Virus record (IMG/VR): IMGVR_UViG_2630968701_000002
Direction: 5' to 3' (one strand)
Length of the DNA: 64,000 nt
DNA from: a virus
Lineage: Duplodnaviria > Heunggongvirae > Uroviricota > Caudoviricetes
Shown here one piece after another: positions 47,309 through 48,775 of this stretch. Made by a program: the position numbers and the translations under genes. Positions within the stretch are counted from its first letter, which is position 1. Each line of letters starts with the position of its first letter. The notes beneath the pieces were generated by a model, which made no database searches, was not told the origin of the DNA, and saw only the letters and a program-made list of their open reading frames with translations.

Positions 47309-48775
47309 TCATTTGAATTCTACGATATAATTTAAAAGCATTGCGGATTCATTGTAAAAGATGATTTCATCATTTAATAGTTGGCTTCCAGCATGTGCGT
47401 GGACACAATTACAATGAAGATTTTTTAACTTATTCTGAGAAAAGCTTTCAGACATCGTAACATCATGTGGTGTTCCATAAGCAGTTGCATAAAGCCCCAT
47501 AAAAGCTGTATCACTATTTCCACTTGCCCATGATGTGCCACGGTAACTGGTATAATTCCAGCTCTTGTTAGAAGATGGAGCAAAATAGATTCCTTTTCCA
47601 AACATTTTTCCAGTAATGATCGCATTTGGATTTAATTGTAATCCATTTTCCAAGATAGAAAACCAATTTTCATTTCTGGATCCGTGCCACAGCTGTTTTA
47701 CCTGATGGATATCTTCTTTTTTCAGATAATCATTAAAACGTTTCTTATGCTTTTGATTGATCACACGATATACCTGATGAACTTTTCCTTTTAACCGATC
47801 AGATAAATGAGCGATCACTTCTTTCTTCTGCTTTTCTGTTGCATAATAAACTTCAATATGATCTGCGGTAAAAGAGTTTTCTTGGATATCAATTGTTGTA
47901 TTTTCATCAGATGCAACAGCTTCCATCGCTGCGATCAGATTCTCTTCACGATAAATGATATCTGCAAAATCACTTTCTGCAGTTGCTAATAATTTTTGAA
48001 TATAACGTTCTTTTCTTGGAGCTACCTGCAGCAATTTTAACAACTGATTATTAAATCCTTTGACAGTCTTTCTTTTCCCCATTTCTTGCAGGATCCGTTT
48101 TGCAGCTTTTACCTGCGCAATTGTTACATGCTCATTTGTCAAAGTTGTTTTGACAACATGTTTTGCATAGGATTTCAAAAGGCAATAAAGCTCATGTGAT
48201 GCTGTATCTTCTTTTTCCTTAGGTGTGTTTGCTTTAAAGGAAGTAGCTTTTTTCTTTTTTGGTTTCTGGTCCTGCAGATAAATATCTGACTGATCAACAT
48301 ATCCTTTGGAAAGTTTTTCGTAATAGCGGATCCAATAAAGATGGGTTGGATATGGATTTTTCAGGTCCTTTGCTCCAAACATTTCTCCTCTTTTTACACC
48401 GATTCTTCCATACGTTGCACTAATTCCATTTGCATTTGGTCGAAGCCAATAATATTTGTAATTATTAGATTCTGGATGGATGCAGGTAAGATAAGCATCG
48501 GGATAGGCAGCAGGAGTTAATCCTTGAATGAAATTGTTTTTCTCTTTTACATACATGGAAGGATAATCAATTCCATTTTCCGTATATGTTCCTCGTTTCC
48601 CCAAGTAGAATTCAGCAGATCCCAGATCTGAGGTAACATAAAGCGTTTGTGGAAGATCTGTTTTCAAATCTGGAAGAACGCTCCCGATTTCCTTATAAAA
48701 ATCGTTTTCATTATTTTCTACCATAACATCTTTTAATACCTCTTGATCTGTTTCAATGTGTAATTTGATTTGCAT
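47309..48775 (-). CDS. Poly(ADP-ribose) polymerase-like protein (WGR + helical + ART catalytic domain)
   Basis: YGRIG...EKLSKGY WGR domain; LWHGS, GKMFGKGIYFA, SWNY, NDEIIFY give the H-Y-E triad. Confidence 0.88.
   Translation of the reverse strand: MQIKLHIETDQEVLKDVMVENNENDFYKEIGSVLPDLKTDLPQTLYVTSDLGSAEFYLGKRGTYTENGIDYPSMYVKEKNNFIQGLTPAAYPDAYLTCIHPESNNYKYYWLRPNANGISATYGRIGVKRGEMFGAKDLKNPYPTHLYWIRYYEKLSKGYVDQSDIYLQDQKPKKKKATSFKANTPKEKEDTASHELYCLLKSYAKHVVKTTLTNEHVTIAQVKAAKRILQEMGKRKTVKGFNNQLLKLLQVAPRKERYIQKLLATAESDFADIIYREENLIAAMEAVASDENTTIDIQENSFTADHIEVYYATEKQKKEVIAHLSDRLKGKVHQVYRVINQKHKKRFNDYLKKEDIHQVKQLWHGSRNENWFSILENGLQLNPNAIITGKMFGKGIYFAPSSNKSWNYTSYRGTSWASGNSDTAFMGLYATAYGTPHDVTMSESFSQNKLKNLHCNCVHAHAGSQLLNDEIIFYNESAMLLNYIVEFK

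Follow-up and report, generated by a model that had tools for sequence, protein, structure and literature searches.

The PARP gene and its domains

The DNA analyzed here, a 64,000-nucleotide stretch of IMG/VR virus record IMGVR_UViG_2630968701_000002 (below, the window), carries a gene for a 488-amino-acid (aa) PARP. Sequence comparisons and a predicted structure confirm the protein as a PARP1/2/3-type ADP-ribosyltransferase with WGR, helical (HD) and catalytic ADP-ribosyltransferase (ART) domains. A first-pass annotation of the sequence had named these three domains and had read the WHGS (H364), GIYFA (Y397) and NDEII (E470) motifs as intact, which Pfam, profile alignments and the AlphaFold2 (AF2) fold all bear out; the N-terminal domain (residues 1 to 92) is an addition to that description. 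The coding sequence and its parts are the following.

47309..48775, minus strand: PARP coding sequence, 488 aa plus stop, ATG start (Pfam, PDB phmmer, homologues, AF2)
48500..48775, minus strand: N-terminal beta-rich domain, residues 1-92 (AF2 predicted local distance difference test [pLDDT] 97-98, family alignment)
48266..48499, minus strand: WGR domain, residues 93-170, with the YGR variant Y122-G123-R124-I125-G126 (profile alignment, fold)
48209..48265, minus strand: Lys-rich low-confidence linker, residues 171-189 (pLDDT 62-69)
47861..48208, minus strand: HD (PARP_reg-like), residues 190-305 (fold alone)
47312..47860, minus strand: ART catalytic domain, residues 306-488 (Pfam, PDB phmmer, fold)
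47684-47686, minus strand: codon of H364, ART domain, WHGS motif
47585-47587, minus strand: codon of Y397, ART domain, GIYFA motif
47366-47368, minus strand: codon of E470, ART domain, NDEII motif

The Pfam PARP model (PF00644) matches the protein with an E value of 7.8e-20, covering residues 329 to 411 only, and phmmer against the PDB matches PARP2 and PARP1 at E values of about 2e-14. In the latter comparison residues 352 to 409, the NAD site, are nearly collinear with PARP2 (LWHGSR..., ITGKMFGKGIYFA..., KSWNY), and the NAD-site and acceptor-site motifs in common with PARP2 comprise HGS, TGxMFGKGIYFA, KSxNY and the catalytic Glu. E470 is assigned as this Glu because the family profile pairs LLNDEIIFY with LNYNEYIVY of PARP2. 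Conservation was assessed in an alignment of 134 sequences, 29 to 78% identical to the window PARP: E277, G365, G393, Y397, K404, Y408 and E470 are invariant among these relatives, and H364 is at least 90% conserved.

The WGR domain and HD are less visible to Pfam. The WGR model matches the window PARP itself weakly (E = 0.24) and is above threshold in several homologues 49 to 57% identical to it; the family profile aligns the region with the WGR domain of PARP2, with Tyr in place of Trp (YGRIG), a YGR form that bacterial PARPs typically show (PMC5966428). The PARP_reg model has no match in the window PARP, where the helical domain is visible by fold alone, and Pfam misses this domain likewise in most bacterial PARPs (PMC5966428).

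The AF2 model, built on the 134-sequence alignment (a single-sequence model with a pLDDT of 34 was discarded), has a pLDDT of 94.4 and a predicted template modeling score of 0.91, and its fold is that of the ARTD family. It divides into a beta-rich domain (residues 1-81), a WGR-like alpha/beta domain (94-166), the low-confidence linker (170-189), a helical bundle (190-305) and the ART domain (307-488). The best PDB match in Foldseek is the DNA-bound WGR-HD-ART chain of PARP1 (4dqy_C; E = 2.7e-18, 474 columns), and the top matches include PARP2 on a double-strand break (6x0l_P). With VIA-align, the HD+ART fragments of PARP2 (Z 24.9, 294 residues) and PARP3 (Z 24.5) align to model residues 182 to 488, chain 4dqy_C aligns at Z 23.9 over 358 residues starting at model residue 91, and the Zn1-Zn3-WGR-HD chain of PARP1 (7s68_B) aligns at Z 8.3 over model residues 88 to 292. 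Model residues 182 to 305 superpose on the HD of PARP1, PARP2, PARP3 and PARP4 (alignments at Z 24 to 25), and the ART fold reaches Z 19 to 25 to PARP and tankyrase ART domains. As judged from sequence and model, the testable defining features of the PARP1-3-like ("clade 1") family are all present.

Two clades of PARPs on mobile elements

In the AF2 model, the N-terminal domain comprises strands at residues 2-9, 13-20, 44-49, 52-66 and 69-81 and a helix at residues 23-31; the family alignment shows a conserved block, KRGTYxKNGxxxPSMYV. The domain was found in 111 of the 134 aligned relatives and also in the PARP of Butyrivibrio plasmid pCY360 (E = 1e-9 with a hidden Markov model [HMM] of the domain). 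Comparison with PDB profiles gave no match (best E about 1), the ESM Atlas yielded no lead, and no stand-alone homologues were found, the short proteins being truncated copies of the same PARP gene. A fused remnant of the macrodomain partner of phage PARPs, described below, was considered as the origin of the domain and rejected (hhalign probability, 0.5%). Residues 1 to 92 form a separate conserved domain that appears to be undescribed in the literature on bacterial and phage PARPs.

The family is large. A word-indexed protein search returned 850 matches, many of them 470 to 500 aa long and 50 to 77% identical to the window PARP, on contigs of up to 276 kb, and the 99%-identical cluster of the window PARP has 554 member sequences. 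When the 50%-identity representatives were searched exhaustively, 2609 clusters passed a cutoff of E ≤ 1e-3 and 425 passed E ≤ 1e-30. Relatives on phage contigs in IMG/VR number 135, and a metagenome scan found at least 428, chiefly from the human gut, on contigs of up to 351 kb. The five loci in GTDB genomes all belong to metagenome-assembled genomes (MAGs) of Lachnospiraceae or other Bacillota and lie on contigs of 64 to 206 kb, except for one short contig. Nearly all sampled family members sit on mobile elements. The first-pass annotation had called bacterial PARPs rare and sporadic, a description that does not survive 425 clusters, 135 phage-contig loci and single alleles seen hundreds of times among gut assemblies. 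Published counts of bacterial PARPs are 28 and 72, with the label "sporadic" (PMC5966428, PMC4245714); given the numbers of clusters and of IMG/VR and metagenome relatives, both the counts and the label understate the family.

A rapidly built maximum-likelihood tree with 74 dereplicated proteins, the finer topology of which is provisional, separates long PARPs, which have the N-terminal domain, from short PARPs of about 405 aa by a branch of length 1.21 with a Shimodaira-Hasegawa-like approximate likelihood ratio support of 100. The long clade is carried by large plasmid-like elements of gut Firmicutes, and the short clade is carried by large phages. When the class of the carrier elements was searched with VirB4-like and terminase models, one weak VirB4-like match (on the contig of locus L005; loci are cited by L numbers) and no terminase were obtained.

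Gene neighborhoods were compared using open reading frames (ORFs) called in the relatives' loci by a simple longest-ORF procedure. In the short clade, on phage contigs of 20 to 290 kb, a gene of about 140 codons stops about 10 bp before the PARP gene in 67 of 85 loci. By profile comparison with 4j5r (E = 1.2e-37), its product is a macrodomain of the TARG1/OARD1 type; the Pfam Macro model matches 20 of the 21 partner proteins. Upstream of this pair lie genes for DnaB, DnaG, a PD-(D/E)XK nuclease, the PolIII alpha subunit and an ERCC4 nuclease, as well as an NAD-dependent (BRCT-bearing) or ATP-dependent DNA ligase. The block of replisome genes, DNA ligase, TARG1-type macrodomain and PARP is conserved across L009-L085 (e.g., L012:427-11197), and a second macrodomain copy lies a few kilobases downstream in some phage loci (L023, L031). 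The PARP and TARG1 pair of large phages of Clostridia and other hosts (PHROG 23333; e.g., Cellulophaga phage phi4:1) has a core homologous to that of the window PARP, at 33 to 39% identity (E = 2.5e-37 for the window PARP against phrog_23333), and both types of PARP are borne on mobile elements, in DNA-metabolism neighborhoods. The phage PARPs, however, are about 405 aa long, lack the N-terminal domain and have, about 10 bp upstream, the TARG1-like gene that is absent from the window. The window PARP is not a member of this writer/eraser pair.

Long-form loci have other neighbors. In one subclade, the gene order is SSB, a 403-aa protein, a DnaQ-like exonuclease, a ClpX-like AAA+ protein, a RecJ-like protein, TopoIII, PARP, an NlpC/P60 hydrolase and a Mob_Pre relaxase; this SSB-to-relaxase module was found in eight loci (L126 [508-14744], L144, L148, L149, L151, L153, L156 and L157). 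Other long-form loci have a metallophosphoesterase, DNA methylases or NrdD as neighbors. A calcineurin-type metallophosphoesterase of 170 to 192 aa is encoded 12 bp 3' of the long-form PARP gene in L006 (11428-11940), L007 and L130, and about 2.2 kb downstream of it in L004 (13555-14133); their cluster occurs in four sequence groups, and they could be phosphodiesterases acting on ADP-ribose products. Two genes downstream of the PARP gene on a Lachnospiraceae MAG contig, L001:12084-12803 encodes 239 aa in which Pfam recognizes a domain of the ATLF type (E = 4e-8), a lethal-factor-like metalloprotease domain.

About 25 long-form loci have a second, short-form PARP gene 0.1 to 6 kb upstream, and in the tree these tandem short-form paralogues form a clade of their own without a macrodomain partner. 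For example, short (390-405 aa) and long (471-508 aa) PARPs are encoded in tandem in L001 (7250-8467 with 10001-11428), and likewise in L006, L007, L097, L107, L110, L112 and L130-L140. The literature on bacterial and phage PARPs appears to describe neither the clean separation of long from short clades, nor the frequency of tandem paralogues, nor the abundance on gut elements.

Eraser genes are scarce near the long forms. An HMM of 63 phage partner proteins detected no macrodomain partner within 10 kb of long-form loci L001-L008, and a search of three long-form viral records gave neither PARG nor Macro. The 64-kb contig of L004, from an Acetatifactor MAG, encodes a microbial PARG (PF10021, 101 bits) 15 kb from its long-form PARP (G003:C11:21187-21564, minus strand, in a 272-aa frame on the same strand as the PARP gene). 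The presence of this PARG makes sense only if chains are made.

These neighborhoods bear on the idea that ADP-ribose is placed on the terminal phosphates of DNA or RNA, shielding the element's ends or nicks from exonucleases of the host or blocking premature ligation. The phosphates of DNA ends can be ADP-ribosylated by PARP1-3, and macrodomains of the TARG1 type can take these adducts off again, chemistry that would suit the phage loci, in which the partner eraser is of TARG1/OARD1 type and the adjoining gene encodes a DNA ligase; RecJ-like and DnaQ-like exonuclease genes close to long-form PARPs point the same way. In the long-form clade, however, no TARG1-like gene was found within 10 kb of L001-L008, and the PARG on one related element suggests polymers on proteins, so that nucleic-acid capping is a rather improbable function for the window PARP.

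The surroundings of the gene in the window

All genes of the window lie on the minus strand, and its GC content is about 33%. As read from the sequence, the PARP gene is a free-standing promoter-to-terminator cassette, of which the promoter part is putative, and it is delimited by these features.

48784..48788, minus strand: ribosome-binding site AGGAG, 8 nt 5' of the ATG (sequence read)
48817..48824, minus strand: putative promoter-like core TCATATTT (coding strand), 42 nt 5' of the ATG (motif match)
48851..48873, minus strand: intrinsic terminator that ends the preceding cassette and bounds the PARP unit on its upstream side (terminator scan, blastn joins)
47279..47300, minus strand: strong intrinsic terminator, 9 nt past the PARP stop codon (terminator scan)

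No second PARP gene was found in the 64-kb window, the ORF at 47309..48775 being the sole copy. Upstream lie two small ORFs (48887-49297 and 49315-49770; no Pfam, PHROG or PADLOC match), a GNAT fusion, a TnpB insertion, a RadC-like gene and an HTH regulator. The GNAT fusion (50004-51278), about 1.2 kb upstream, is a 424-aa protein with a long N-terminal part and a C-terminal GNAT acetyltransferase domain. Downstream, a GC-rich non-coding cassette, separated from the PARP gene by the terminator at 47279..47300, is followed by a gene for a 484-aa protein (weak DUF1539, PHROG match) and, further on, by genes for a DUF6864 protein, an orphan Dam-type methylase, an RlaP-like protein and then an LPD1 protein. 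Megablast with the 20 kb surrounding the gene found no match in collections of plasmids and phages.

Both flanks are variable. By blastn, positions 48853-49981 are missing in six variants (L086, L087, L088, L091, L093 and L094), in which 49982 is joined to 48852 and the PARP gene is intact; across the PARP segment the variants share at least 92% identity, and the join falls exactly at the border between terminator and promoter. In variants without the two small ORFs, the GNAT-fusion gene stands directly upstream of the PARP cassette. The small ORFs were rejected as PARP partners, since they are missing from six variants in which the PARP is unchanged. The downstream non-coding cassette travels with the PARP gene only in elements at least 94% identical; a link between the two is unsupported, as a terminator lies between them and no such cassette occurs in other long-form loci. 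Because the upstream ORFs and the non-coding cassette come and go, neither flanking cassette is an obligate partner. Six independent, near-identical contigs from gut metagenomes (L086, L088, L090, L091, L092 and L093) stop 134 to 299 bp past the PARP stop codon, at 47014-47178, inside the non-coding cassette, and four other contigs read through; the contig ends look like an assembly break at repeated or variable sequence.

The variation of ORFan cassettes around the PARP gene between near-identical elements would fit a drifting cargo gene without current function. This is highly improbable for a full-length frame with its own ribosome-binding site, promoter-like motif and terminator, catalytic residues conserved across 134 sequences as little as 29% and at most 78% identical (with Y397 and E470 invariant), 554 sequences in its 99%-identical cluster and a very confident AF2 model.

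A RadC-like gene, an orphan Dam methylase gene and an LPD1 protein gene lie near the PARP gene; genes of these kinds typically serve mobile elements upon cell entry, which also suits the DNA-processing role preferred below. The three, the last being of the polyvalent type, fit an anti-restriction or establishment set and are one of the grounds for considering host takeover or anti-defense, in which host RNA polymerase, translation or defense proteins would be ADP-ribosylated soon after entry, much as by T4 Alt and Mod but with PARP chemistry. Such a role for phage PARPs was proposed in comparative jumbo-phage studies (PMC7824862, PMC9503650); in addition, the PARP gene forms one of the cassettes of a unidirectional array with a common, putative promoter-like motif, and the 64-kb window shows no eraser. 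Nevertheless, a WGR domain with an autoinhibitory HD points to activation by breaks and not to a constitutive effector, the relatives lie in replication and repair modules and not in head-packaging or early-injection modules, and no MuF or polyvalent-protein fusion is present among the approximately 250 homologues listed. Takeover is therefore unlikely, although it is the least unlikely of the alternatives.

Mobile elements also carry many defense genes. The PARP could sense the DNA ends of an incoming phage and burn NAD+ by runaway synthesis of poly(ADP-ribose) (PAR), arresting the infected cell and protecting the clonal hosts of the element: with a polymerase-type triad and no eraser, an enzyme could exhaust NAD+, and PARP1 hyperactivation does so in animal cells. 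The search of PADLOC-DB 2.0, however, gave no defense match for the window PARP (the best was JetC, at E = 0.015 and 11 bits, over a coiled stretch in the helical region) and nothing significant for its neighbors, and no partner effector or immunity gene was seen. Moreover, the sister clade is encoded by phages, within their own replication modules, and the element's own transfer and replication make DNA ends, which would lead to self-killing. Defense or an abortive response is accordingly held to be improbable, slightly more so than capping.

Known PARPs and the predicted role

The closest named relative is the PARP of megaplasmid pCY360 of Butyrivibrio proteoclasticus B316 (WP_013282825.1; BpPARP, UniProt E0S444, PMC8120803), which is distant in sequence (33% identity over residues 83 to 487). 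It is similar in length (509 versus 488 aa), in architecture, including the N-terminal domain, and in its large plasmid-type carrier, Lachnospiraceae host and DNA-metabolism surroundings (a helicase gene lies directly downstream of the pCY360 gene, and HU is encoded about 4 kb downstream), but the gene neighbors themselves differ. The pCY360 PARP is listed with target and function unknown (PMC8120803), and PARG and macrodomain genes, none of which was seen in the 64-kb window, are reportedly present in the genome of Butyrivibrio (PMC4245714). A YGR-type WGR domain and the lack of a Pfam PARP_reg match are traits of "Clostridiales clade 1.2" (Garcia-Saura et al. 2018, PMC5966428), to which the pCY360 PARP belongs, and the window PARP, by sequence, shows the features of this clade: WGR and PARP_cat, a Pfam-invisible helical domain, YGR and a Clostridia host.

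Bacterial and phage PARPs have been cataloged before (PMC5966428, PMC7824862, PMC9503650, PMC8120803, PMC4245714); according to reviews, their targets and function are unknown and two enzymes have been assayed (PMC8120803). PAR synthesis in vitro has been demonstrated for no bacterial PARPs but these two, HaPARP of Herpetosiphon aurantiacus and CdPARP of Clostridioides difficile CD160, and HaPARP needs DNA (PMC8120803, PMC4245714). Like the window PARP, they have WGR, helical and ART domains with the H-Y-E triad. Unlike it, they lack the N-terminal beta domain, by published architectures (PMC5966428), and have both a canonical Pfam PARP_reg domain and a paired PARG that reverses the product, neither of which is in view for the window PARP; they are described in the literature as genes of their bacterial strains. 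The three-domain core of human PARP1/2/3 (6x0l, 4dqy, 3kcz, 3c49) superposes on the model at Z 23.9 to 24.9 over 294 to 358 residues, with near-identical NAD-site motifs but 17 to 21% overall identity. In place of the zinc fingers or BRCT of the human PARPs, the window PARP has an unrelated N-terminal domain of 90 aa; it also differs from them in the Tyr that replaces the WGR Trp and in the residue at the Y986 position of PARP1.

Our preferred reading, to which we assign a probability of roughly 0.5, is that the gene encodes a PARP1/2/3-type enzyme, predicted to be catalytically competent, carried by a giant mobile element whose host is a gut member of the Lachnospiraceae, and that its DNA-end-activated ADP-ribosylation would serve the processing of the element's own DNA. 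With a WGR-helical-ART core, an intact triad and a mobile element as carrier, an enzyme activated by nucleic acid breaks is the natural reading; the first-pass annotation had likewise described an ADP-ribosyltransferase of the DNA-break-sensing type on a mobile element, and domain assignments and predicted fold agree with it.

In PARP1-3, the WGR domain reads the DNA break and destabilizes the HD, whereupon the NAD+ site opens. By analogy, we infer DNA-dependent activation, the kind of product (polymer or mono), the targets and the biological role of the window PARP. Its WGR domain would bind a DNA end, a nick or a single/double-strand junction, probably with help from the clade-specific N-terminal beta domain. 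DNA binding would release the autoinhibitory helical domain, and the ART domain (H364, Y397, E470) would then transfer ADP-ribose from NAD+, perhaps in chains, to the PARP itself and to nearby proteins. In this way the PARP would most likely mark the element's DNA intermediates, protect them or coordinate their processing at entry, replication or repair; end or nick marking, protection and recruitment are forms that such a role in the element's DNA transactions might take.

This role is ranked first because the neighbors of both kinds of relatives include enzymes that create DNA ends and nicks or act on them. The first-pass annotation had offered defense, host takeover and protection of incoming DNA side by side; protection of the element's own DNA gains from the ligase, replisome, SSB, exonuclease, TopoIII and relaxase neighbors of the relatives, whereas defense loses ground for want of a PADLOC match. 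Killing of the cell is a less likely purpose than handling of the element's own DNA.

Several observations weigh against the preferred reading. The immediate neighbors of the window PARP (small ORFs, the GNAT fusion and the non-coding cassette) are not DNA-metabolism genes, so that the role is borrowed from relatives 30 to 60% identical, and no conserved synteny was found between the window and distant long-form loci. The eraser families Macro, PARG, NADAR and ARH had no match at E ≤ 0.01 in a Pfam scan of 70 window ORFs, and the HMM of the 63 TARG1-like phage partners found nothing in the six frames of the window (best E, 0.27); the absence of PARG and macrodomain genes noted in the first-pass annotation thus holds for the window. 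The lack of an eraser in 64 kb fits a signaling cycle less well than irreversible action. Finally, Asn occupies the position of PARP1 Y986 in the profile alignment, and the triad alone does not give chains: its association with polymer-capable PARPs, drawn in the first-pass annotation, stands, yet it is no proof of polymer synthesis, because PARP3 is a mono-transferase.

A bolder version of the preferred reading can be sketched, although we consider it distinctly unlikely. The N-terminal beta domain would be a new ligand-sensing module that steers the PARP to intermediates arising when plasmids transfer or replicate, for instance a junction of single- and double-stranded DNA or an end bound by relaxase. 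The result would be an eraser-less, effectively irreversible ADP-ribosylation switch, sometimes with a tandem short-form paralogue, needed for the establishment of giant conjugative elements in gut Firmicutes. If this were true, PARPs would be primarily an invention by which mobile elements manage their own DNA ends.

Among the large mobile elements of Lachnospiraceae from the human gut, PARP1-3-like enzymes are common, and single alleles recur hundreds of times in public assemblies. The PARPs of mobile elements come as a phage type, with a TARG1-like eraser and ligase and replisome genes, and a plasmid-like type, which has the N-terminal domain and, in most cases, no eraser. A family of this size corrects the view, drawn from 28 to 72 sequences, of bacterial PARPs as rare sporadic imports from eukaryotes.

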